In this document: one piece after another, positions 14,137 through 56,351 of the stretch | How the letters are laid out: every line of letters starts with the position of its first letter | Numbering within the stretch: the first letter of the stretch is position 1 | NCBI GenBank assembly: GCA_021793645.1 | Contig: JAJYSJ010000002.1 | Coordinates: forward strand, 2,003 to 66,002 | Reading direction: 5' to 3' | DNA from: Bacillota bacterium | Lineage (GTDB): Bacteria > Bacillota > Sulfobacillia > JAJZYS01 > JAJYTV01 | Length of the DNA: 64,000 nt | Notes under the pieces: generated by a model | Told to the model about the DNA's origin: nothing | What the model saw: the letters and a program-made list of their open reading frames with translations, nothing else | Database searches by the model: none | Position numbers and translations under genes: made by a program

Positions 14137-14211
<75 letters not shown>

Positions 14212-14216
14212 GTTTC

Positions 14217-14290
14217 GCGGGTGTAGCTCAATGGTAGAGCAGTAGCCTTCCAAGCTTCAGACGTGGGTTCGATTCCCATCACCCGCTCCA
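14217..14290 (+). tRNA. tRNA-Gly (anticodon TCC), CCA encoded
   Basis: Acceptor GCGGGTG/CACCCGC, D-arm GCTC-AATGGTA-GAGC, anticodon loop CTTCCAA, T-loop TTCGATT. One T-T mismatch in the anticodon stem. Confidence 0.85.
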
Positions 14291-14297
14291 ATCGTTT

Positions 14298-14373
14298 GCC
14301 CCAGTAGCTCAGTGGTCAGAGCATCCGGTTTCTACCCGGAGTGCCGGGGGTTCGAATCCTCCCTGGGGCGCCA
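14298..14373 (+). tRNA. tRNA-Arg (anticodon TCT), CCA encoded
   Basis: Acceptor GCCCCAG/CTGGGGC, D-arm GCTC-AGTGGTCA-GAGC, anticodon arm TCCGG-TTTCTAC-CCGGA, T-arm GGGGG-TTCGAAT-CCTCC. Confidence 0.85.
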
Positions 14374-32426: not shown

Positions 32427-32773
32427 TGGTGGAGGCGCGGGGGAACTGCCCCCCCGGTCCGCCGAACCCCCAGTACGGGCATCTACGAGCGTAGCCCTCG
32501 CTTTAATCTCACCTTCGGCGCCTTACAAGGGCGAAGTCGCCGTCAGCCAGCCTCAGTTGATGTCCGCGCGTAGTCGGGGCGCCCCCCGCGCGTGAGCCCG
32601 CTAATTAGCGTCCCTCCGGCGCGCAGGCTTCGCCAGGAGGAACGGCTCAAGTGCGCTTAGGCAGCGAGAGCGTAGTTTGAATCGTTGGCAGTTGTGCCGT
32701 TTCCGCTGTTTTACGAGGAGCGGAACCTCGGCTCGCTTCCCGAACCAGAACATACGACGTCGATCCTGGTTCG
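32427..32773 (-). ncRNA. ssrA: tmRNA (SsrA, transfer-messenger RNA)
   Basis: 5' GGGGGCGAACCAGGATCGACG... Tag reading frame GCC AAC GAT TCA AAC TAC GCT CTC GCT GCC TAA gives ANDSNYALAA. 3' end ...CGCCTCCACCA with the G3-U70 tRNA-Ala identity pair in the acceptor stem. Located immediately downstream of smpB, as in Firmicutes. Confidence 0.88.
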
Positions 32774-32784
32774 CCCCCAAACTT

Positions 32785-42230: not shown

Positions 42231-42274
42231 GGTGGGCCACTTCCTCCTTGTTCCATTTGGGCACAGACCGCATT

Positions 42275-42280
42275 TATTAT
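42275..42280 (-). promoter_or_regulatory. Candidate -10 box (TATAAT) of the gap operon promoter
   Basis: Minus strand ...CGTTATAATAAATGCGG..., about 45 nt upstream of the gap start, in a lower-GC patch. -35 element weak (no TTGACA-like hexamer found upstream). Confidence 0.4.
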
Positions 42281-42346
42281 AACGAATGGCCTCCTCTGCC
42301 ACCACCTGCAGTCGATTCCAAGCACAGTCAGAAGGGCGCATTCTGC

Positions 42347-43870
42347 GTGGACCATATGGACTGGGTGCGGGCTCAGCAGCACGCAGCCTCCCCGCGGATG
42401 TACCAGACTGTGCGCCTGCGCGAACAGGACTTCCTTCATCTGTTATGGAAACTCCAGGAAGTGCTCCTCTGCTTGGAGGTGGGCTGCGTGACGCTGCGTG
42501 CCCTTGCCTACGATCTCGACATCGAGCTACTGCCCGTGCCTTCCGAGCATCCGATTGCGGATGCACCCGGCCGGATCGGCGTCTCATGCACCGTTCGCCT
42601 GCGCAATGAAGGCCGCCGCCCGGCATCCCAGGTGCATCTCCTGCTGTACCGGCTACTTCGCATCCTGTCCGCCGCAGAGTGGAACGCGACGGAGAAGCCG
42701 CTTTTGCTGCGGCAGTCCGTGCGGCGAATGTCGGTAGAGGGCGCAGATACGCTCTACGTAAATGCCGTGACGCTTTCGCTCGCGCAGGAGCTGGAGCCTG
42801 GCCGAGAGACGACATTGCGTTTGCACTATGGCGGCACGCTTGTCGGATACCGCGAAGCGTTCGCGTATGTCCATGACTCCGTGCAACGCGACGTCGCGGT
42901 CCTCAGGCCGGAGGTGCTCTGGTATCCGCTCATCGCCCGTGCATCCTGGGAGGGGTTCCTCAGCGCCTTGTCCGTGCCGCACTTCCACATGACGGTGCAC
43001 CTTCCGGAGCGCTGGGACTGCTTTGTCGCCTCGAGTGAGGCATCTGACCGAACGCATCGGCAAGTGCAGTTCACGAGCGCTACTCCATCGCTTGGAATGT
43101 ATCTCATCGCTGGACGGTATGGTCATCTGCACCGTGGCGAGATCCACGTCCACCACCTCCCGGGTAGAGAGGAATGGGCACGCGCCGCGTGCTCCGCTGC
43201 CTCCTTCGCCAGATCCACCCTGCGCAGCTGGCTCGGTCCGCCCGCATTCGGTGAAGACAGAGTGACGATCGTTCAGATCCCGGCGGGCTGGGGGTCCCAG
43301 AACCTTCCTGGCATGATCACCCAGACTGGCGAGAGCGACCCGGAACGCACCTTTCGGGAAGTGGTGCACGAGGTCGCCCACTTCTGGACTCCCCTCGGGG
43401 ATCCCAATCGGTTCTGCGACGAGGCGATGGCACATTTCCTCGAGGACCTACTAGAACGCGAAAAGAACGGGGAACAGCGCGGGGAAGCAGCATTCGCCCG
43501 CCACCTTGACGCACTCCGGGACAGCCCGGGCGCGCTGCGCGCTCCACTGGCGACGGCGGCAGGCCGCTTAGAGATCGACGTCATCTCGCGGCACAAGGGG
43601 CCCCTGGCCCTGGCGGTGCTCGATGCCTCTATCGGCCGAGCGCGGTTCTTTCAACTGCTCCGGGACTGGGTCGCCAACCCCGTTGCCGCTGGAGCGAGTG
43701 CTGGAACATTTGCGGAGTTCGTGCGGCGCGCACTCGTTGGCGAACAGGCTTGGAATGTTCAGAAGTTCCTCGACGATTGGTTCTACAGCGAGTCCGACAC
43801 AATCCAGCCGAACCTCCCGATAGCCGCAGCGCTCGACCGCGCGGTCGAGCGCTACAAGAGGAGCCGCTAG
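42347..43870 (+). CDS. M1-family (gluzincin) zinc metallopeptidase/aminopeptidase-like protein
   Basis: HEVAHFW...(18)...E zinc-binding HEXXH-X18-E motif. The start is uncertain: GTG 42347 after GAAGGG, or ATG 42356/42395. Divergent from gap. Confidence 0.6.
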   Translation: MDHMDWVRAQQHAASPRMYQTVRLREQDFLHLLWKLQEVLLCLEVGCVTLRALAYDLDIELLPVPSEHPIADAPGRIGVSCTVRLRNEGRRPASQVHLLLYRLLRILSAAEWNATEKPLLLRQSVRRMSVEGADTLYVNAVTLSLAQELEPGRETTLRLHYGGTLVGYREAFAYVHDSVQRDVAVLRPEVLWYPLIARASWEGFLSALSVPHFHMTVHLPERWDCFVASSEASDRTHRQVQFTSATPSLGMYLIAGRYGHLHRGEIHVHHLPGREEWARAACSAASFARSTLRSWLGPPAFGEDRVTIVQIPAGWGSQNLPGMITQTGESDPERTFREVVHEVAHFWTPLGDPNRFCDEAMAHFLEDLLEREKNGEQRGEAAFARHLDALRDSPGALRAPLATAAGRLEIDVISRHKGPLALAVLDASIGRARFFQLLRDWVANPVAAGASAGTFAEFVRRALVGEQAWNVQKFLDDWFYSESDTIQPNLPIAAALDRAVERYKRSR

Positions 43871-45315: not shown

Positions 45316-46206
45316 ATGGACACGACAGCGCTGCGTACCTTCGTCGTGGCCGCGCGCGCCGGCAGCTTCCGCCGGGCTGCCGCGCTGCGCTACCTTTCCC
45401 AGGCCACCGTGACCCAGCAGATCCAGCGGCTCGAGGCAGAGCTCGGAACGCCGCTGTTCGACCGCAGCGGGCGTGCGGTGCGCCTGTCCGCGGCAGGAAG
45501 CGCCTTCCTGCCGCGTGCGGAGCGCGTGCTGCGGGAGCTTGCGGCCGCTCAGGCCGACCTCGGTGAAGGCAGACCCGCTCCCCTGCGCATCGCCGCGGCA
45601 CCGCACATCGCCCGGGTCTTCCTGCCGTCGCTGCTCGCGCGCGCTGCGGCGCCCGAGCGCTGGGCGCTGTCCGTCCTCTCCTCGACCGATGTTCCGGAAG
45701 CGGTGCGTACAGGCGAGGCGGACGTCGGACTCGCCCGTTTCCGCCCTCTCCCCCTCGATCTGCAGTCGATCTTCCTCTACGAGGACGATCTCCTGCTGAT
45801 CACCGCCCACGACGGCCTCGACCTCGACCGCGAGCCACCCGACCCTGCCGATCTGCTCGGACGGCTGCCGCTCTTCACCTACGGCCCCGGAGCGACCTGG
45901 ATCGCAGTGGAGGAGGCCCTTCGCCGGGCCGGATTGCCAGCCCCACGGTTGATGCACGTAGCCCAAATCGACATCGCAAAGCAGTTCGTGCTGGGCGGAT
46001 TCGGTGTCGCTATCCTGCCAAATGCCGCCGTGCGCACGGAACTTGCCTTCGGCAGTGTGCTCGCGGTACCGCTCCTAGGCATTGCCCTGCCGAAGGACGG
46101 CGTGTACGCGATCCTCCCCGCCGAACCTTCACCCGCTGCCCAGCAGTTCGTGCAGCGGGCGGGGACCTGGTTCCTCGGACGAAGGACGGGCCACCACGGA
46201 ACTTGA
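45316..46206 (+). CDS. LysR-family transcriptional regulator
   Basis: MDTTALRTFVVAARAGSFRRAAALRYLSQATVTQQIQRLEAELGTPLFDR is the canonical LysR HTH; 296 aa. Confidence 0.85.
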   Translation: MDTTALRTFVVAARAGSFRRAAALRYLSQATVTQQIQRLEAELGTPLFDRSGRAVRLSAAGSAFLPRAERVLRELAAAQADLGEGRPAPLRIAAAPHIARVFLPSLLARAAAPERWALSVLSSTDVPEAVRTGEADVGLARFRPLPLDLQSIFLYEDDLLLITAHDGLDLDREPPDPADLLGRLPLFTYGPGATWIAVEEALRRAGLPAPRLMHVAQIDIAKQFVLGGFGVAILPNAAVRTELAFGSVLAVPLLGIALPKDGVYAILPAEPSPAAQQFVQRAGTWFLGRRTGHHGT

Positions 46207-46349
46207 TCTTGTGTCTCTTGGCAGGCGGCAGGACCCTGCGGAGGTCCAGGCGCCATGCGATGCGCGTCTTCGGGAAACTTGTCGTATGGGTCTACTTTCG
46301 TACATCCCGGCATACATGCACCCCATCCGCATAAGGGGGGCTTCTTGCC

Positions 46350-47660
46350 ATGGCCCTGGATCCAGACCGGTTTGACGAGGCGCCCCATGCCACCCTGTCG
46401 CAGCGGATCCGCTCACGCACCGCGCGGGTAGCGGTCATCGGAATGGGCTACGTCGGCTCTCAACTGGCCCTCGCCCAAGCGGAAGCCGGCTACCACGTAC
46501 TCGGCATCGAGGTTGACCCGGTCCGCCTGACCCAACTGAAGCTGGCAACAGATCTCTCGTCTCGCATCGCCGGCGGCAGCCTTCAACTGACCAATGACGT
46601 GCAGGCGCTCAGCACTGCAGACGTGATCGCAATCTGCGTCGGGACGCCTCTCAGTCGCAACCACGAACCCGACGTGGGGCCGCTGTGCTCAGCTGCAGCA
46701 GCGGTCGGCAGCACACTGCACCCTGGCCAGCTCGTTATCGTGGAGAGCACCGTGTACCCGGGTGCGACAGAGGAATTGGTGCGGGGGATCCTCGACGATC
46801 GCGGGCTCGTCTGCGGCGAGGACTACTTCCTCGCCTACGCCCCTGAACGCGTGGACCCCGGCAATCAACGGTACAGGTTTCGCAACACCCCGAAGTTGGT
46901 CGCAGGGGTAACCCCGGAGGCTGGCTCTCTGGCGAAAGCATTCTACTCCTCCGCTGTGGAGCAGGTCCTGGAGGTCTCGGAACCGAGAATTGCGGAGATG
47001 GCCAAGCTCTACGAGAACGCCTACCGCGCGGTGAACATCTCCTTCGTCAACGAGATGATGCTGCTGTGCCACCACATGGGCATCGACGTGTGGGAGGTTC
47101 TGTCCGCGGCGGAGAGCAAGCCGTTCGGCATCCAGATCTTCCAGCCCGGTCCAGGCATCGGCGGCCACTGCATTCCCGTCGATCCCTTCTACCTCTCCTG
47201 GAAAGCACGGGAATACGGCTTCCAGATCGGCTTCATCGAGCAGGTCGCTCGGGTGAACTGGCAGGTTGCCAGGCATGTCGTGCAGCAGGTCTCCACCGCG
47301 CTGAGCGACTCGGGGAAGAGCCTGCGAAACGCGAAGCTCCTGGTCCTCGGGGTGGCCTACAAGGCGGACGTCGCCGACGTCCGTGAATCGGCGGCATTGC
47401 GAATCCTGCCGGAACTCAGGAAGCTCGGTGCGCAGGTCCGCTACCACGATCCCCTCGTCGCCGAACTGGAAGTCGACGGTGAGCACCTGCGCAGCGTCGA
47501 CCTTACACCCGACGCGTTGGCGTCCTCCGATTGCGTGCTCGTGCTGACCGACCACAGCGGCGTCGACTACGAGGCGGTAGTGCGCTACGCACCCTTGGTC
47601 TACGACACGCGCAACGCGACCCGGCTGCAGCTTCCATCCCCCAACGTGTTGCGACTGTAG
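46350..47660 (+). CDS. UDP-N-acetyl-hexosamine 6-dehydrogenase (WecC/WbpA/TviB/Cap5O family nucleotide-sugar dehydrogenase)
   Basis: VAVIGMGYVGSQLA Rossmann motif, ESTVYPGATEE, AYAPERVDPGN and ...FQPGPGIGGHCIPVDP... with catalytic Cys align with WecC/WbpA rather than HasB/Ugd-type UDP-glucose dehydrogenase. Confidence 0.78.
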   Translation: MALDPDRFDEAPHATLSQRIRSRTARVAVIGMGYVGSQLALAQAEAGYHVLGIEVDPVRLTQLKLATDLSSRIAGGSLQLTNDVQALSTADVIAICVGTPLSRNHEPDVGPLCSAAAAVGSTLHPGQLVIVESTVYPGATEELVRGILDDRGLVCGEDYFLAYAPERVDPGNQRYRFRNTPKLVAGVTPEAGSLAKAFYSSAVEQVLEVSEPRIAEMAKLYENAYRAVNISFVNEMMLLCHHMGIDVWEVLSAAESKPFGIQIFQPGPGIGGHCIPVDPFYLSWKAREYGFQIGFIEQVARVNWQVARHVVQQVSTALSDSGKSLRNAKLLVLGVAYKADVADVRESAALRILPELRKLGAQVRYHDPLVAELEVDGEHLRSVDLTPDALASSDCVLVLTDHSGVDYEAVVRYAPLVYDTRNATRLQLPSPNVLRL

Positions 47661-47672
47661 GCGGCGGGCGCA

Positions 47673-48959
47673 ATGCTGCACGTTCCGAAACTGCAGGGTC
47701 TGATGCTGTTCCTGATCGTCGCGGCTGCCGTCGTGGGGCTGAACGCCGCGATGAACCAGGGGGGAATGCTCGGTTTCAGTCTCTACGGCGCGGTCACCTT
47801 GACGTATCTCCTGCTCAAGATCCTCTTCTCGCTCTGGTACCGTCCATTCGAGGCGCCCGAGGGTTGGTGTGACGATCAATCGGTCGCCGTCATTGTGCCG
47901 GTATACAACGAGGATCTGGAAGTGTTCCAGCGCTGCCTGCAGAGCATTCTCCTACAGAGCAGGCCAATCGACGAGATCTACGTGGTCGACGATGGATCGC
48001 AAGATGACGCATGTTTTCGCGTGGCCCAGGAAACGTTCCGCGGGACGCCACACCGGGTCGTGCGCTTCACCGAGAACCGCGGCAAGCGATACGCCCAGGA
48101 GGTGGCATTTCGCGAGACCACTGCCGACATCGTGCTCACTGTCGACAGCGACAGCGTCCTCGACGAGAACGCAGTGCGTGAAGGCTTGAAGCCCTTTTCC
48201 ATGACCAGTGTCCAGGGAGTCTGCGGCCAGGTGCGTGTGCTGAACCGCGACCAGAATTTCCTTACCCGGTTGCTCGATCTGCGGTACCGCAACTCGTTCC
48301 TCTACGAGCGGACGGCGTACACCGTCTGGGATTCGGTGCTCTGCTCCTCCGGCGTGATCAGCTTCTGGCGGGTTGCGCTGGTGCGCTCACACCTCGACGA
48401 CTACGTGAACCAGACCTTCCTCGGCGTGCCCGTGGGGTACGGCGACGATCGCAGGATGACCAACTACGCCTTGCTGACGGGGCGTGTGGTGTTTCAGGAG
48501 ACAGCCGTCGCCGATACCGTCGTCCCCATCACCCTGCGCCATTTCCTAAAGCAGCAGAACCGGTGGAACAAGTCGTTCTTTCGCGAGACGATCTTCGCAC
48601 TGACCCGCCTCCCGCTGCGGCGCATTGCGTGGTGGATTTCCTTGAGCGAGGTTGCGCTGTGGCTGTTCTTCACGGTCAATCTGGTCGCCAGCGTGATCCG
48701 GCCCCTGGTCGGCGGCACTGCGCTTGGCGTCTACTACCTCGGGTATCTCGCCTTGATGGCGTACGCCCGCAACGTGCGGTTTGGACTGGGAAACTGGGGT
48801 ACGTTCCTGCTCTCCCCGCTGTACGGCGCCTTGCATCTGTTCCTGCTCGTTCCGCTCCGCGTCCTGAGTCTCTTCTCCCTGCGCGACGGACGATGGGGAA
48901 CGCGCGAGGCCGGCGGGCCTCCCCCGCCTACGGTGGGCAGCAACGTCTCGTCTGCGTAG
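47673..48959 (+). CDS. Class I hyaluronan-synthase (HasA)-like processive GT2 polysaccharide synthase
   Basis: Collinear with streptococcal HasA over the full length: VAVIVPVYNED, EIYVVDDGSQDD, NRGKRYAQ, LTVDSDS, GDDRRMTNY, QQNRWNKSFFRE (QXXRW), LLSPLYGALHLF and ...WGTRE. 428 aa with N- and C-terminal TM segments. Confidence 0.85.
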   Translation: MLHVPKLQGLMLFLIVAAAVVGLNAAMNQGGMLGFSLYGAVTLTYLLLKILFSLWYRPFEAPEGWCDDQSVAVIVPVYNEDLEVFQRCLQSILLQSRPIDEIYVVDDGSQDDACFRVAQETFRGTPHRVVRFTENRGKRYAQEVAFRETTADIVLTVDSDSVLDENAVREGLKPFSMTSVQGVCGQVRVLNRDQNFLTRLLDLRYRNSFLYERTAYTVWDSVLCSSGVISFWRVALVRSHLDDYVNQTFLGVPVGYGDDRRMTNYALLTGRVVFQETAVADTVVPITLRHFLKQQNRWNKSFFRETIFALTRLPLRRIAWWISLSEVALWLFFTVNLVASVIRPLVGGTALGVYYLGYLALMAYARNVRFGLGNWGTFLLSPLYGALHLFLLVPLRVLSLFSLRDGRWGTREAGGPPPPTVGSNVSSA

Positions 48960-48971
48960 GGGGGTTTCGCG

Positions 48972-50573
48972 TTGTCGCGGTCTCGGGTAATTCTTCTCGT
49001 CCTGATCGTTGCCGGGATGCTGCTGGCGCTGGTGATGGAGTCCGGGCTCTGGTCACCGTCCATCTCCCCTGCGCGGGTCACCGAAGCGTTCACCAGCATG
49101 AGCGGCACGCCGCCGCCTCCATCCCCTCCACGCCTGCCGCCGGTTGCAACCGCCTCCTGCAGATCGGCCTCTCAGTCGTGGCTGCAGGTCTGGGGCGACA
49201 ACTTCAATCAACCCTTTGACAACTACCGCTGGCATGTCATGACGGGACAGCCGCGCAAGAACGGTGAAGTGGAGAACTACCTTGCAGCGAACGTACTGGA
49301 TCAGGGTGGCAACCTCGTTCTGCGTACAGCACGGGAAGGATCAGGCTACTCCTCCGGCGCCGTCGACACCAGAGGCACCCTGTCCCTGCTCTATGGCAAG
49401 ATCGTCATCCGTGCGAAGCTGCTGCGCGGCCAAGGGATCTGGCCGGCATTCTGGCTCAGGCCAGTGAGCGGCAGCCTGCTGCCGGAGATCGACATCATGG
49501 AAATGCTCGGGAGCCGGCCGAACGCAGTCGATATGACACTGCACTGGGAATCCGCACAGGGACCCACGCACACCTACATCGAGCACATTGGGCCAGACCT
49601 CTCGGCTGGCTTCCATACCTACACGCTCGTCTGGCTGCCCGGCGACCTGCGCTGGTACCTTGATGGGCAGCTGCTCCTCAATGTGACGGCCCACGTTCCG
49701 AATGTACCGATGTACCTCACGATGAACACTGCTGTCGGCAGCACCTGGGGGGGCTACCCGGCGCCAAGCACGCAATTGCCCCAGGATCTGCTGGTAGACT
49801 TCGTGCACGTCTACCAGTACGGCATCTGCACCAGCGGGCACTTTACGCCGTCCCCGGGCGAGTACGTCAACATGAGCTGCGAGTGCCGGGTCGGCGTGTT
49901 CGTTCTGCACCAGGTCTCGTCGACTAACCTTGGCCCCTACAATATCACGCCAGCCCAGCTTGCGGCGGACGTCGACTACCTGCGCCGTCACCACGTCCGC
50001 TTCATGTCGCTGGAGCAGTTCCTCACCTTCGAGGAAGGCCGCTGGAAACCGCAGGGAGCCTGGGTGCTTCTCACCTTCGATGACGGCTACAGCAGCATCT
50101 ACCGGAATGCGCGACCGATCTTGGCGGCGCGCCACATTCCGGCGGTCCTGTTCCTCATCGGCAGCAGACTTGATACGGAACGCTTCTGGATGTCCACAGT
50201 CCAGGTGAAGAGTCTCGCGCACAGTGGCCTTTGGGCAATTGAAGCACATACCTTCGCAGAGCACCACCTCGTTCACGGCGTGCCGGTGCTGCAAACCCTC
50301 GAGAGCAAGAAGCAAGAGGTCGTCATCGTGCACGACACCTGGCGCGAGCAGGCGGTTATCCGCTCCTTGACCGGCAGATCGGCATACGCCTTCGCCTTCC
50401 CATACGGCTACGAGACCCCGACGCTGGCCGCTCTCTACAGCCGCAGCTATGCCATCACCTTCGACTCGCACTACGCCTTGGCGCAGCCCGGCCAAGATGT
50501 GGTGCCGCGCATAGACCTCGGGTCACCCAAAGCGGACGTTCAGGCGATCTGGCAGCATTGGTTTGCGCATTAG
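48972..50573 (+). CDS. Secreted/membrane-anchored bifunctional enzyme: N-terminal GH16 glycoside hydrolase domain plus C-terminal CE4 (NodB-type) polysaccharide deacetylase domain
   Basis: N-terminal signal/anchor MSRSRVILLVLIVAGMLLAL. GH16 catalytic motif ...WPAFW...LPEIDIMEM (E-I-D-I-M-E). CE4 motifs LTFDDGY and ...AHTFAEHHL.... Confidence 0.72.
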   Translation: MSRSRVILLVLIVAGMLLALVMESGLWSPSISPARVTEAFTSMSGTPPPPSPPRLPPVATASCRSASQSWLQVWGDNFNQPFDNYRWHVMTGQPRKNGEVENYLAANVLDQGGNLVLRTAREGSGYSSGAVDTRGTLSLLYGKIVIRAKLLRGQGIWPAFWLRPVSGSLLPEIDIMEMLGSRPNAVDMTLHWESAQGPTHTYIEHIGPDLSAGFHTYTLVWLPGDLRWYLDGQLLLNVTAHVPNVPMYLTMNTAVGSTWGGYPAPSTQLPQDLLVDFVHVYQYGICTSGHFTPSPGEYVNMSCECRVGVFVLHQVSSTNLGPYNITPAQLAADVDYLRRHHVRFMSLEQFLTFEEGRWKPQGAWVLLTFDDGYSSIYRNARPILAARHIPAVLFLIGSRLDTERFWMSTVQVKSLAHSGLWAIEAHTFAEHHLVHGVPVLQTLESKKQEVVIVHDTWREQAVIRSLTGRSAYAFAFPYGYETPTLAALYSRSYAITFDSHYALAQPGQDVVPRIDLGSPKADVQAIWQHWFAH

Positions 50574-53340: not shown

Positions 53341-54099
53341 CTAGCCGAACCGGCCCGTAATGTAGTCTTCCGTTCGCTGGTCGCGAGGCCGGGTGAAGAT
53401 GTCCCTCGTCGGCCCGAACTCGATCAGTTCGCCGCTCAAAAAAAAGGCGGTGTGATCAGATATGCGGCCAGCCTGCTGCATGTTGTGCGTCACGACGATT
53501 AGTGTATACCGCTCTTTCAACGAAACCGCCAATTCCTCGATCTTCGCTGTCGCGACCGGGTCGAGCGCCGATGCCGGCTCGTCCATCAAGAGGACCTCGG
53601 GCTCCACCGCCAGTGCTCGAGCGATGCATAGGCGCTGCTGCTGGCCTCCAGACAGTTCGAACGCGCTGCGCTGCAGCTTGTCGTGCACCTCGTCCCAGAG
53701 TGCCGCGGCGCGCAAGCTCTCTTCGACGATCTCGCGCAGTCTGCGTTCGCTGCGCTGTCCATGGATGCGGGGACCGTAGGCAACGTTCTGGTAGATCGAC
53801 ATCGGAAACGGATTCGGACGCTGGAAGACCATCCCGACACGGCGCCTAAGCGCCACGGGATCTTTGCCGCGCGCATAGATGTCCTCGCCGTCCAGCAGCA
53901 CGCTCCCCTGCACGCGTGCACCTGGGACATGGTCGTTCATGCGGTTGAGCGTACGCAGGAATGAGGACTTGCCGCAGCCGCTCGGACCGATGATGGCCGT
54001 GATCGAATTCTCCGGCACCCTCACGCTGATCTCCTTCAGCCCCTGCGAAGGGCCGTACCAGAGGCTCAGCTTCTCGGCTTCCATCTTCGCTGCGTTCAA
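53341..54099 (-). CDS. pstB: Phosphate ABC transporter ATP-binding protein
   Basis: Walker [16 protein letters not shown] signature LSGGQQQRL, Walker [12 protein letters not shown]; N-terminal extension typical of PstB. Confidence 0.93.
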
Positions 54100-54860
54100 C
54101 GCATGAGACCCTCCTGTCGCCGTTCGAACAAGAGCTCGGCTGCGGCCGCCGCAAGCGCGGCCAGCGATAAAAGCAGCGCAACCGGCCAGAATGACTGCGC
54201 AGTCCCGATCCGTCCTTGCATCTCAAGATACCATAGGGCCGCGGCAAGCGTCGCGCCTGCCCGGAGCGCCCCCTCTCCGTGCGCTGCGAGCGGGCCAGCG
54301 AGGAGCGCGACGAGGCCTGCCTCGCCGAGTGCACGACCGGCGACCTGGAGCAGCGTCTGGCCGATTTCCTGCCGGGCCGCGGGAAAGACGGCCCGCGCAG
54401 CCTGCGACGCATCGGCCCCCAGCGCCAATGCGGCCTCGGCGATCTCCCGATGCCGCGCAAAGCCTTCAGCCACCTGCAGAACGGCGATTGGCAGGTTCAG
54501 CAGTGCGAGCCCCACGGCAGCGAGCCAGACTCCCGCCGGCAGGTGCATCAGGTCCGCCCAGGCGATCAGCACCGCTGCACCGACCGCCACGGACGGAACG
54601 GCGGCCGCCGCCTGCAGGAAGCTGCGCACAGCCCCCTCTTTGCGGCCGGCCCCGCCGAGCGCCAGTTCAGCGCCGGCCCGAAGGCCCAGCGTCGCGCTGA
54701 CGGATACCGCGAAGAGCGACGTGACGAGCGTCGCGAGCAGCGGTCCGAGATCCGGCGGCGTGCGCGGTATGCCGCCGGATGCCGCGGCGGCGCAGAGCCA
54801 GACAGCGGCGGTGAGCAGCACGAGTGCGCGGTAGCGGCCCTCACCGCTGCGCAGGCGCAT
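54096..54860 (-). CDS. pstA: Phosphate ABC transporter permease (PstA-like)
   Basis: Ala/Leu-rich polytopic protein in the pstA position. The start is uncertain. The track ORF overlaps pstC by 77 nt. Confidence 0.65.
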
Positions 54861-55608
54861 CTCGCACCCTCCCAAGCGCGCCGGCAGCCGCGCCCGCCAA
54901 CGCGAGCAGGAGCGCAATCGCGCCGAGGGCTGCCTGCCAGCGCCCGCCCGCAGGCGCCTGCGGCAGCTCTGCGAGGAGCGACGCCGAGAGTGCTCCGGAT
55001 GGAGCGAAGAGCCGCGGAAGCCCTCCCGCGTTGCCGATCAGCACGCTGAGGACGGCGGCCTCGCCGATGATCCGGGTCGCCGCAAGCCCGAAGAGCCGAA
55101 TGCGCACTCCGCGCAGGGCACCCCGCAGCGCCAGAAGGACGCCATCCGGCCCGGCTCCAAGGGCGACGGCTCCGTCGCGCGCCGCGCTTTGTGCCGACAG
55201 CGCACCGGCGATGCCCTGTGCGACGAGCGGCGTCTGCAAGAGCCCGAGGCCGATCGCTGCAAGCGCAGTCCCCTCGCCGAGGGAAACGCTGTGCAGGGCC
55301 GGCAGGAGGGCTGCGAGCATGCCTGCCGCCAGCGCCACCCCCGGCGTGCTCGCGAGGACGCGCAGTGTCCGTCCGCGGCGCCCGAAAGCGATCTGCACGC
55401 CTGCGCCCTCGCCAAGCCAGAGTGCAAGCGCACCGCCCAACCCCGCCACCAGCAGCGAGCCGAGCACGATGCCCGCGACGCCATAGGCGAAGGGCGGCGA
55501 CCACACGGGTCCGAGGGTGATCCGCCAGATCCCCTCGCCGCCCCAAACCGCGACGACAGCGAGGGGCAGGCCGGCAGCGAGGAGCGCGAGCCGCAGGCCG
55601 CGGCTCAC
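54841..55608 (-). CDS. pstC: Phosphate ABC transporter permease (PstC-like)
   Basis: Polytopic membrane protein between pstS and pstA. 4-nt overlap with pstS. Confidence 0.65.
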   Translation of the reverse strand: MSRGLRLALLAAGLPLAVVAVWGGEGIWRITLGPVWSPPFAYGVAGIVLGSLLVAGLGGALALWLGEGAGVQIAFGRRGRTLRVLASTPGVALAAGMLAALLPALHSVSLGEGTALAAIGLGLLQTPLVAQGIAGALSAQSAARDGAVALGAGPDGVLLALRGALRGVRIRLFGLAATRIIGEAAVLSVLIGNAGGLPRLFAPSGALSASLLAELPQAPAGGRWQAALGAIALLLALAGAAAGALGRVRDAPAQR

Positions 55609-56351
55609 TGCGGGGCTCCCCGCTGCGCCGCAAGCGCCTGGAGCACCCGTGCCGCGAGCTTCGCCCGCGCATTGCCCACGCGGTACAGGGCGTAGGCCGT
55701 GTAGCGCAGCGGGTAGCCTGCGTCCCCAGGCGCTTTGCCATCCACAGTGACCAGCAGCGAGCGCGGCGCGAACGACGCCTCGACGAAGCCGATGGCGCCC
55801 GGCAAGTGCGCAACGGTCGGCGCCACCTGTCCGCTCGCCAGCACCACGAGAGCGCCCTGGGGCAGGGGGCCGCCGGCGAAGCGCTCGAGCAGCGCCCGCA
55901 CACCCGAACCGGGCGCCCGCAGGACAAGCCGCAGCGGGACGCGCGGTCCCCCCAGCTCCTGCCAGTTGCGCAAATGTCCCTGGAGCATCTCCTGCAGCTG
56001 GCTCTGCGTCAGGTTGTGCGGCAGCCCCACTGCGGCGATCACGGAGATCGCCACTCCTCCCAGCGGGACGCGGGCGACGCCCGGCGCCTTGAGGGGCAGG
56101 TCAGAGAGCGCGAGGTCCGCTGCACCGCGCCGAACCGCGGAGAGCCCTTCGGAAGATCCCAGAGTGTCCACTTCGATGCGACCGCCTAGGGCAACCGCGA
56201 GGGGCGCCTTCGCCGCCTCCGCCAGCGGCGCGAGCGAGGTTGACCCAGCGATGACGAGTGCGGGAGACGGCAGCAGCGGGGTGAGGGCAAGCGCGAGCAG
56301 CACGGCGATCAGCACCCCCAGCCAGACGCGCAGGAATCGATCCATCGGCAA
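55605..56351 (-). CDS. pstS: Phosphate-binding protein (PstS-like, membrane-anchored)
   Basis: N-terminal TM anchor, then ...VIAGSTSLAPL...GSSEGL... PBP-like motifs. 248 aa, shorter than typical PstS. Confidence 0.7.
   Translation of the reverse strand: MPMDRFLRVWLGVLIAVLLALALTPLLPSPALVIAGSTSLAPLAEAAKAPLAVALGGRIEVDTLGSSEGLSAVRRGAADLALSDLPLKAPGVARVPLGGVAISVIAAVGLPHNLTQSQLQEMLQGHLRNWQELGGPRVPLRLVLRAPGSGVRALLERFAGGPLPQGALVVLASGQVAPTVAHLPGAIGFVEASFAPRSLLVTVDGKAPGDAGYPLRYTAYALYRVGNARAKLAARVLQALAAQRGAPQ

Follow-up and report, generated by a model that had tools for sequence, protein, structure and literature searches.

The locus described here raises the question of what an exported enzyme with two polysaccharide-active domains does directly behind a processive polysaccharide synthase. 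The gene lies in a 64-kb stretch (64,000 nucleotides, hereafter the window) of contig JAJYSJ010000002.1 from a Bacillota bacterium, where it follows genes for a nucleotide-sugar dehydrogenase and a glycosyltransferase family 2 (GT2) protein resembling hyaluronan synthases (HAS). It encodes a glycoside hydrolase family 16 (GH16) domain fused to a carbohydrate esterase family 4 (CE4) deacetylase domain. On balance, the fusion protein is probably bifunctional and works outside the cytoplasm, where it would both cleave the product of the adjacent synthase and remove N-acetyl groups from it; its gene is the third of what is probably a minimal synthase-dependent cassette for an exopolysaccharide or cell-surface polymer. 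In our best reading, it would be a functional analogue of PgaB and PelA with GH16 as the hydrolase partner, and the polymer is possibly based on N-acetylglucosamine (GlcNAc) and N-acetylglucosaminuronic acid (GlcNAcA).

The reading frame of the fusion gene comprises 533 codons, starts with TTG, and is closed by a stop codon at 50571-50573. Its product is identical to NCBI MDA8344492.1, which is derived from a metagenome-assembled genome (MAG) and labelled "family 16 glycosylhydrolase [Thermaerobacter sp.]"; an alternative NCBI call of 518 amino acids (aa), P0001, begins at Met16 and would truncate the membrane anchor. A preliminary description of this gene, made from the DNA letters, had placed both domains in one polypeptide, and domain searches, motifs, predicted fold, and conservation in orthologues all agree with it. 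Pfam found PF00722 (Glyco_hydro_16) at residues 113-260 (80.6 bits against a gathering cut-off of 22) and PF01522 (Polysacc_deac_1) at residues 364-487 (63.7 bits against 23.1), both of which the description had named for checking. Four orthologues from other assemblies (P0002-P0005; 529-552 aa; 66, 59, 58, and 44% identical to the window protein) have the same domain order, with no stop or frame change between the GH16 and CE4 domains in any of them. Because the same continuous architecture occurs in five assemblies including that of the window, and because the G+C content at third codon positions (GC3) of the frame (0.79) is like that of neighbouring genes (0.79-0.89), a frameshift or assembly artefact, which the description had allowed for, was rejected. 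An antisense open reading frame (ORF) at 49341-50495 (384 codons) was likewise rejected as a real gene, because it has the codon-position profile of a shadow ORF (G+C of 0.82 at first and 0.61 at third positions) and the Pfam support lies on the forward strand.

The AlphaFold2 model, built on a 42-sequence alignment (mean predicted local distance difference test score, pLDDT, 88.4), consists of a helix (residues 3-23), a disordered linker (27-58), a beta-sandwich (~63-287), and an alpha/beta domain (~305-533), and the junction between the two domains (residues ~285-305) is formed by ordered strands. The structure prediction thus gives the two expected domains, which Foldseek matches to laminarinases and to IcaB, respectively.

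By threshold, motif, and predicted fold, the fusion protein is a GH16 member, for which retaining endo-glycanase or transglycosylase activity is predicted. The best PDB sequence matches of this half are the beta-1,3-glucanases 9voq, 3atg, and 2hyk (1e-36 to 1e-32), and its closest structures in Foldseek are the laminarinases 3azx, 2hyk, 3atg, and 4crq (target TM-scores of 0.75-0.86), which, together with a pLDDT mostly above 90 in the domain, points to a beta-jelly roll. We compared the five fusion proteins with 27 GH16-only homologues, and Glu172, Asp174, and Glu177 are invariant in all of them (5 of 5 and 27 of 27).

Other positions separate the two sets. Arg163 is invariant in the five fusion proteins and occurs in 0 of the 27 homologues, where Leu is usual; Val220 is invariant in the fusion proteins, and 21 of the 27 homologues have Glu or Asp at this position; Ala130 is invariant as well, where Arg or Leu is usual in the homologues. 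Tyr85, Pro94, Tyr202, His241, and Cys286 are further clade-specific invariant residues. Since Arg163 lies two residues beyond Trp161 on the same strand (residues 156-164 according to DSSP), it is expected to point the same way as the WPAxW tryptophans. The laminarinase ULam111 uses both tryptophans of WPAxW for stacking on its substrate and binds sugar with an Arg that corresponds to Ala130 (PMC5595797). The signature of subfamily GH16_3 has been given as WPA...W[ML][ML]...WPX, in which the WPX loop lies next to the negative subsites (PMC6827312). The window protein has WPA, reads W-L-R in the second motif with Arg163 in place of M/L, and has no WPX before the catalytic strand; its best GH16 matches are nevertheless all GH16_3 structures. 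The GH16 half is therefore probably not an ordinary laminarinase, and we hypothesize that its substrate is an anionic, uronic-acid-bearing one other than laminarin, for which a cleft region with one basic residue more and one acidic residue less would be well suited. A literature search on lichenase subsite residues returned nothing relevant.

All five fusion proteins have two cysteines, Cys63 (49158-49160) and Cys286 (49827-49829), that bracket the GH16 domain, and none of the 27 GH16-only homologues has Cys286. A disulfide between the two cysteines that clamps the domain is possible, and it would fit an extracytoplasmic location and thermostability.

The C-terminal half qualifies the protein as a CE4 member, again by threshold, motifs, and predicted fold. 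Its best PDB sequence match is IcaB of Ammonifex degensii (4wcj, 1e-22), followed by PgaB/BpsB, and Foldseek aligns it with 4wcj at a TM-score of 0.88 (root-mean-square deviation of 1.9 A) and with the N-terminal domain of PgaB (3vus) at 0.75, as expected for the distorted (beta/alpha) barrel of this family. TFDD aligns to TFDDG of IcaB and FDDGY of PgaB, and HTFAEH to HTYDLH of IcaB; both motifs are invariant in the orthologues. The motifs WPAFW, EIDIME, and TFDDGY had been read correctly in the preliminary description, but the histidine pair is Hx4H (HTFAEH) instead of the HxxxH given there; likewise, its assignment to CE4 holds, with the correction that the subtype is that of IcaB/PgaB and not that of NodB and chitin deacetylases. 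His313 may be analogous to the catalytic acid His55 of PgaB, judging from the strand-then-His pattern, as local alignments stop short of this region. Asp370, Asp371, His426, His431, and His313 are invariant across the five orthologues, and because the catalytic residues of both halves are thus kept, both centres look competent.

The CE4 half scores 74.7 bits against the IcaB model TIGR03933 (cut-off 248.35) and 64.2 bits against the PgaB model TIGR03938 (cut-off 321.9). An IcaB or PgaB orthologue was rejected on the basis of these scores and of a partner synthase that is not PgaC/IcaA. In the strict sense, a PgaB-type CE4-GH153 protein was also rejected, as Pfam finds only GH16 and CE4 and the CE4 domain reaches the C-terminus, and so was a PelA-type GH166-CE4 protein, as sequence and fold both identify the N-terminal catalytic domain as GH16. 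The closest CE4-only relative, P0213 (L093:255-1475; 190 bits to the fusion profile), lies on a short contig and carries a C-terminal SLH cell-wall-binding domain and no GH16 domain.

The sole strongly hydrophobic segment of the fusion protein is found at residues ~3-26 on the Kyte-Doolittle scale, and 19-residue windows above 1.6 start only at residues 1-11, jointly covering residues 1-29. Export appears to be conserved in function among the fusion proteins, because four of them (that of the window included) have an N-terminal anchor and the fifth has a classical signal peptide ending in ASA instead. The protein had been described as secreted: the single N-terminal export or anchor segment is present, but a signal-anchored, membrane-tethered ectoenzyme is most likely, with a topology predicted from the hydrophobic profile, rather than a freely secreted protein. 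The motif ESGLWSP (window 49032-49052, residues 23-29) is kept although the adjoining linker is hypervariable; it follows the helix in three of the four anchored proteins (window, P0002, and P0003) and reads ESGLVSL in P0004. It may be a contact point for the synthase or a processing site. The features of the gene and of its cassette are collected in Table 1.

Table 1. Positions in the window of the three cassette genes and of the domains, motifs, and other elements of the fusion gene.
Feature	Position	Strand	Description
Cassette gene 1, nucleotide-sugar 6-dehydrogenase	46350-47660	+	436 aa; probably UDP-GlcNAc 6-dehydrogenase
Cassette gene 2, processive HAS/NodC/chitin-synthase-like GT2	47673-48959	+	428 aa; 12 nucleotides after gene 1
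GGGGG run, like a Shine-Dalgarno sequence/ribosome-binding site	48960-48964	+	7 nucleotides before the TTG start of the fusion gene; read from sequence
Cassette gene 3, GH16-CE4 fusion gene	48972-50573	+	uninterrupted ORF, 533 aa plus stop
N-terminal hydrophobic helix, read as signal anchor	48978-49040	+	residues 3-23; helix in the AlphaFold2 model, pLDDT ~90
Pro-rich disordered linker	49050-49145	+	residues 27-58; pLDDT <50; length and sequence variable among orthologues
GH16 beta-jelly-roll domain	49158-49832	+	residues ~63-287; closest to laminarinase-type GH16_3
WPAFWLR strand	49440-49460	+	WPAFW at residues 157-161; Trp157 and Trp161, putatively sugar-stacking; clade-specific Arg163
GH16 catalytic motif EIDIME	49485-49502	+	residues 172-177; Glu172 predicted nucleophile, Asp174, Glu177 predicted acid/base
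CE4 deacetylase domain, IcaB/PgaB subtype	49884-50570	+	residues ~305-533
His313, candidate catalytic acid	49908-49910	+	first strand of the CE4 domain; invariant in five orthologues
CE4 motif 1, TFDD	50073-50084	+	residues 368-371 (TFDDGY 368-373); Asp370 predicted catalytic base, Asp371 predicted metal ligand
CE4 motif 2, HTFAEH	50247-50264	+	residues 426-431; His426 and His431 predicted metal ligands; Hx4H as in IcaB/PgaB

The first gene of the cassette has all three UDPG_MGDP_dh Pfam domains and scores 386.8 bits against TIGR03026 (cut-off 189.8). Among the more specific models, those for UDP-N-acetylmannosamine (UDP-ManNAc) dehydrogenases fit best (237 and 218 bits), followed by TviB (192 bits), and those for UDP-glucose (UDP-Glc) dehydrogenases are lower (AglM 163, TuaD 150 bits), all of them below their cut-offs. 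The best solved relatives are the UDP-ManNAc(A) dehydrogenase 4r16, CalS8, and Cap5O, ahead of UDP-Glc dehydrogenases. Homologues of 47-53% identity are named "UDP-N-acetyl-D-glucosamine dehydrogenase" by the Joint Genome Institute (JGI) and in some NCBI records, at the level of annotation. Taken together, these comparisons suggest that the first gene probably encodes a UDP-GlcNAc 6-dehydrogenase rather than an enzyme of the UDP-Glc type.

The second gene matches the GT2 families and Chitin_synth_2 in Pfam, and its product is closer to NodC and HAS than to PgaC/IcaA (198 bits against the NodC model TIGR04242 with a cut-off of 550; 68.6 bits against the PgaC_IcaA model with a cut-off of 422). 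Its top PDB matches are the HAS of Chlorella virus (CvHAS) and Xenopus HAS1 (XlHAS1), at ~1e-37. The motifs DSD158, GDDR257, QQNRW294, and WGTR408, hydrophobic segments at both ends (residues 1-55 and 321-404), and the nearest structures are together those of a class I hyaluronan synthase, and homologues of 45-53% identity are labelled "hyaluronan synthase" by JGI. The placement of the fusion gene straight after a HAS-like synthase, as first described, is hence well founded. Residues of the CvHAS donor site (Lys177, YGDD, Arg303, Arg341/Trp342, and Arg348, as given in PMC12987647) are conserved in the alignment with the window GT2. They were considered as a means of naming the polymer and set aside as not discriminating, since they are probably conserved across the whole HAS/chitin-synthase group.

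The product can be approached from the composition of the cassette. True hyaluronan is doubtful because the first gene looks like a UDP-GlcNAc rather than a UDP-Glc dehydrogenase, and the polymer probably contains a uronic acid, instead of being plain chitin or poly-N-acetylglucosamine (PNAG), because a conserved dehydrogenase, absent from the preliminary description, belongs to the cassette. A tblastn search with the UDP-GlcNAc 2-epimerase of another locus (L087) found no such gene in the cassette or in the 64-kb window, the part of the genome searched, which mildly favours GlcNAcA over N-acetylmannosaminuronic acid.

Several loci with related synthases were also viewed. At L087:5350-12319, the gene of a HAS-like GT2 (50% identical to that of the window) precedes that of the UDP-GlcNAc 2-epimerase, and three proteins of the GH26 family, one with SLH domains, are encoded on the flanks. 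With different parts, this arrangement resembles that of the window cassette, in which a synthase is combined with a sugar-nucleotide enzyme and a cognate glycanase, and it hints at a ManNAc-containing polymer. HAS-like GT2s of Actinomycetota are ~600-650 aa long with a C-terminal extension. The gene for one of them, at L088:680-15136, lies amid several GGDEF/EAL, PAS, and histidine-kinase genes, which suggests regulation linked to cyclic di-GMP in that lineage.

Both junctions of the window cassette are 12-nucleotide gaps. The order dehydrogenase, GT2, fusion is found in five of five loci (L001, which is the window's genome, L002/L003, L004, L005, and L006), the flanking genes are wholly different at each locus, and outgroup GT2s at ~50% identity are without partner genes; for these reasons the three genes behave as one cassette and travel together. 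The cassette is restricted to a handful of Thermaerobacter-like MAG lineages. An unfused ancestral arrangement, with GH16 and CE4 encoded separately next to a dehydrogenase and a HAS-like GT2, was not found in the outgroup GT2 contexts viewed, nor on the P0213 contig, which is too short for this purpose.

How rare the fusion is was estimated from several searches. A word-indexed search of 5.8 billion clusters returned five fusion proteins. A profile search of 1.84 billion representatives at 50% identity gave 49,577 matches, and among the matches listed only P0001 and P0005 matched end to end; this census is based on the best 150 of the 49,577 matches, and weaker GH16-CE4 combinations may exist. 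A scan of GTDB species representatives with GH16-motif patterns yielded at least 80 loci, all ordinary GH16 genes, with no full-length fusion among the matches listed, which does not demonstrate absence; one locus of Microvirga (L040) matched residues 74-396 and was viewed at the level of ORFs only. No description of a GH16-CE4 enzyme was found in the literature, and GH16 does not figure in a systematic survey of the PNAG, Pel, cellulose, and alginate operons (PMC7112194). A GH16 domain had been called an unusual partner for a deacetylase, and a search for other such fusions had been proposed. The outcome, five proteins of the same order, two of them full-length representatives among the matches listed from the 1.84 billion searched, and one of reverse order, is in keeping with that view.

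The reverse-order fusion, P0103, was the only one among the multi-stretch matches inspected. It has 675 aa, with CE4 at 221-339 and GH16 at 492-657. The GH16 half is 39% identical to that of the window and carries EIDIME, and the CE4 half is of another subtype with canonical HxxxH. The P0103 gene ends 10 nucleotides before a PgaC/IcaA-like GT2 (457 aa, 123.8 bits; L090:7001-10411), which is 22% identical to the window GT2; the locus, on a metagenomic contig with a G+C content of 49%, has no dehydrogenase. Judged by these comparisons, P0103 is an independent fusion event, again beside a processive synthase of the GlcNAc-polymer type, and no other comparison speaks as strongly for a functional link of the synthase with the fusion protein.

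A working model can be drawn from these observations, in which we infer the substrates, topology, reaction order, balance between hydrolysis and transglycosylation, and biological role (biofilm matrix, capsule, or wall polymer). The dehydrogenase would oxidise a UDP-N-acetylhexosamine, most likely UDP-GlcNAc to UDP-GlcNAcA. The HAS/NodC-like GT2 would then build a beta-linked chain from UDP-sugars, with GlcNAc and/or the uronic acid as units, and extrude it via its own membrane channel. On the outer side of the membrane, the fusion protein, tethered by its N-terminal helix and Pro-rich linker, would meet the emerging chain. The CE4 domain of IcaB/PgaB type would strip some of the N-acetyl groups at a metal-dependent Asp-His-His site, and the GH16 domain, as a retaining ExDxxE enzyme, would cut the chain endo-wise or possibly transglycosylate it; such cutting may set the chain length, release the chain, or clear stalled polymer. 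According to earlier work, synthase-dependent systems usually come with a hydrolase or lyase of their own, and in many cases with a deacetylase too, as exemplified by PgaB, PelA, BcsZ, and AlgL (PMC12022489, PMC7112194). Between the two roles put forward at the outset, a cut-and-deacetylate maturation of the polymer is predicted and clearly favoured over general cell-wall remodelling, because the gene is fixed in the dehydrogenase-GT2-fusion cassette at five of five loci with unrelated flanks.

Several observations weigh against a processing enzyme for the synthase's polymer. The nearest characterised relatives of the GH16 half are beta-1,3-glucanases (35-39% identity), so that the substrate may be a glucan, although the genomic setting speaks for a different one. 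All equivalog models (NodC, PgaC, IcaB, PgaB, WecC, and TviB) are below their cut-offs for the cassette proteins. The family is small: ~5-7 members are known, and each comes from a metagenome assembly within a similar range of G+C content (62-69%). Common descent may therefore account for part of the synteny of the cassette, even though the flanks are entirely different. A promoter and terminator scan at the cassette gave nothing above shuffled expectation and did not delimit an operon, and the predicted TM-score of the fusion model (pTM 0.58) leaves the inter-domain geometry uncertain.

A bolder version of this proposal seems possible but rather less than likely. The three genes may form a self-sufficient minimal system for an undescribed acidic amino-sugar polymer, e.g., a GlcNAc/GlcNAcA analogue of hyaluronan, which would become zwitterionic on partial de-N-acetylation. 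The GH16 domain would then have a new specificity and possibly form a new subfamily: it would cut an N-acetylhexosamin(uron)ic polymer endo-wise, having been taken over as the cognate trimming enzyme of a HAS-like synthase. If this is true, GlcNAc-polymer secretion systems would have acquired a GH16 hydrolase on at least two occasions, given P0103. Confirmation of the main proposal, a processing enzyme for the synthase's polymer, would extend the substrate range of GH16, make available a three-gene pathway, compact and thermostable, for a polymer resembling glycosaminoglycans that is acidic or zwitterionic and possibly new, and provide a thermostable deacetylase/glycanase pair as a tool or anti-biofilm reagent. 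It would also put right the database label "family 16 glycosylhydrolase", under which neither the deacetylase half nor the role in biosynthesis is visible.

Three other explanations of the fusion protein were considered. The one that survives best, although we regard it as unlikely, is a wall-assembly enzyme whose GH16 domain acts mainly as a transglycosylase, as in fungal Crh or plant XTH, and grafts the product of the synthase onto peptidoglycan or a secondary wall polymer, while the CE4 domain makes free amines for anchoring or charge. Bona fide transglycosylases do occur in GH16, including the chitin-acting Crh enzymes of GH16_18/19 (PMC6827312); the closest CE4-only relative carries an SLH domain, SLH proteins are encoded near the cassette in L002, and the membrane tether would put the enzyme at the interface of wall and membrane. 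However, the GH16 domain is closest to the hydrolytic GH16_3 and not to GH16_18-20, with the proviso that sequence alone cannot separate the two activities, and no acceptor polymer is indicated.

It is more improbable still that the protein is a foraging or antifungal enzyme, in which a surface laminarinase and a chitin or chito-oligosaccharide deacetylase attack the beta-1,3-glucan and chitin of fungal or algal walls independently of the synthase. CE4 does include chitin deacetylases, the nearest characterised GH16 relatives are endo-beta-1,3-glucanases both by sequence (1e-36) and by fold, and the GH16-only homologues nearest to it are secreted and typical of the family, with modules of the carbohydrate-binding type. 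The fusion protein, by contrast, has no carbohydrate-binding module according to Pfam and is predicted to be membrane-tethered, and its CE4 domain belongs to the biosynthetic IcaB/PgaB subtype rather than to that of chitin or peptidoglycan deacetylases. Moreover, the gene is fixed behind the dehydrogenase and the synthase at all five loci with differing flanks, no sugar transporter or catabolic genes were found near the cassette, and the clade-specific residues of the cleft differ from those of laminarinases.

The C-terminal domain of PgaB was long regarded as binding or scaffold-like, and one domain of the fusion protein may in the same way be catalytically dead or serve only for binding, leaving the protein effectively monofunctional; despite the IcaB and PgaB scores far below the cut-offs and a catalytic acid (His313) assigned by inference only, this is the least probable of the three, as no canonical catalytic or metal-binding residue of either domain varies among the orthologues of 44-66% identity and catalytic residues are lost in only ~0.7% of GH16_3 members (PMC6827312).

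The window cassette sits among housekeeping genes, with LysR and HMGL-like genes upstream and glnA downstream. The G+C content of the region 46001-50000 (0.62-0.64) is a little lower than in most of the window (~0.66-0.69), and the GC3 of the cassette is host-like (0.79-0.82); the lower G+C is at most a weak hint of past horizontal acquisition. A transfer-messenger RNA gene (32427-32778, reverse strand; 147.9 bits) and a cluster of three tRNAs (14137-14370, forward strand) confirm a housekeeping chromosomal setting. An ORF of ~504-540 aa at 42248-43870 on the forward strand, between a gap-pgk-tpi-pgm glycolytic operon and the HMGL-like gene, is called in the public assembly with no Pfam family recorded. 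The most G+C-rich stretch of the window, 54001-56000 (0.73), has a strong positive AT skew (0.23) and overlaps two genes of ~255 aa in a pst/phoU cluster, which have no recorded Pfam match and stand at the positions expected for the PstA/PstC permeases.

Compared with known systems, the GH16 half shares with the GH16_3 laminarinases (3atg, 2hyk, 3azx, 4crq, and ULam111) the beta-jelly roll, the EIDIME beta-bulge motif, the tryptophans of WPAFW, and conserved histidines (His191 and His215). It differs from them in having W-L-R for W-[ML]-[ML], no WPX loop, and the residues Arg163, Val220, and Ala130, as well as in its fusion to CE4, its predicted membrane tether, and its place in a biosynthetic cassette. 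Small units that pair a nucleotide-sugar dehydrogenase with a HAS-like GT2 of class I are also known from the hyaluronan systems of streptococci (HasA with the UDP-Glc dehydrogenase HasB) and of Chlorella virus (CvHAS with a viral UDP-Glc dehydrogenase). The window dehydrogenase, however, appears to be of the UDP-N-acetylhexosamine type, and the window GT2 is shorter (428 aa) with a predicted product. We know of no hyaluronan system with a deacetylase or a GH16 enzyme.

IcaB, the deacetylase of Gram-positive PNAG (polysaccharide intercellular adhesin), is the closest solved CE4 relative (4wcj). It works at the surface of a thermophilic Firmicute, Ammonifex degensii, on a GlcNAc polymer made by a GT2. 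It is a single-domain protein without hydrolase, and its partner synthase is IcaA/D. P0103 resembles the window protein in uniting both catalytic families in one exported protein adjoining a processive GT2, whereas its domain order is opposite, its CE4 subtype (HxxxH) and GT2 family are different, and a dehydrogenase is missing from the L090 locus. PelA of the Pel system (GH166 and CE4) has the same order as the window protein, with the hydrolase N-terminal and CE4 C-terminal, and is described in earlier work as processing a partially de-N-acetylated hexosamine polymer after its membrane transport (PMC12022489). No sequence relationship of the window protein to GH166 was detected, the hydrolase folds differ, and Pel is an alpha-1,4-GalNAc polymer made by PelF (GT4).

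PgaB/BpsB, encoded in the Gram-negative pga operon, joins a PNAG de-N-acetylase to a C-terminal GH153 domain. Like the window protein, it combines an extracytoplasmic CE4 domain (FDDGY and Hx4H) and a glycoside hydrolase in one chain beside a processive GT2, and the two proteins are similar in sequence and fold in their CE4 halves. The window hydrolase is a GH16 beta-jelly roll instead of a GH153 (beta/alpha) barrel and stands N-terminal, so that the order is reversed; the anchor would be a transmembrane helix in a monoderm host instead of a lipid; the synthase is HAS/NodC-like and not PgaC, and a dehydrogenase belongs to the unit. The design principle of synthase, hydrolase, and deacetylase is thus already established, with CE4-GH153 and GH166-CE4 as the known fusions. 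What is unprecedented in the window is the GH16 partner, a third and unrelated hydrolase fold in this design, together with a compact three-gene cassette that, in the setting of a monoderm thermophile, would be the smallest conceivable operon of a precursor enzyme, a synthase, and a processing enzyme.

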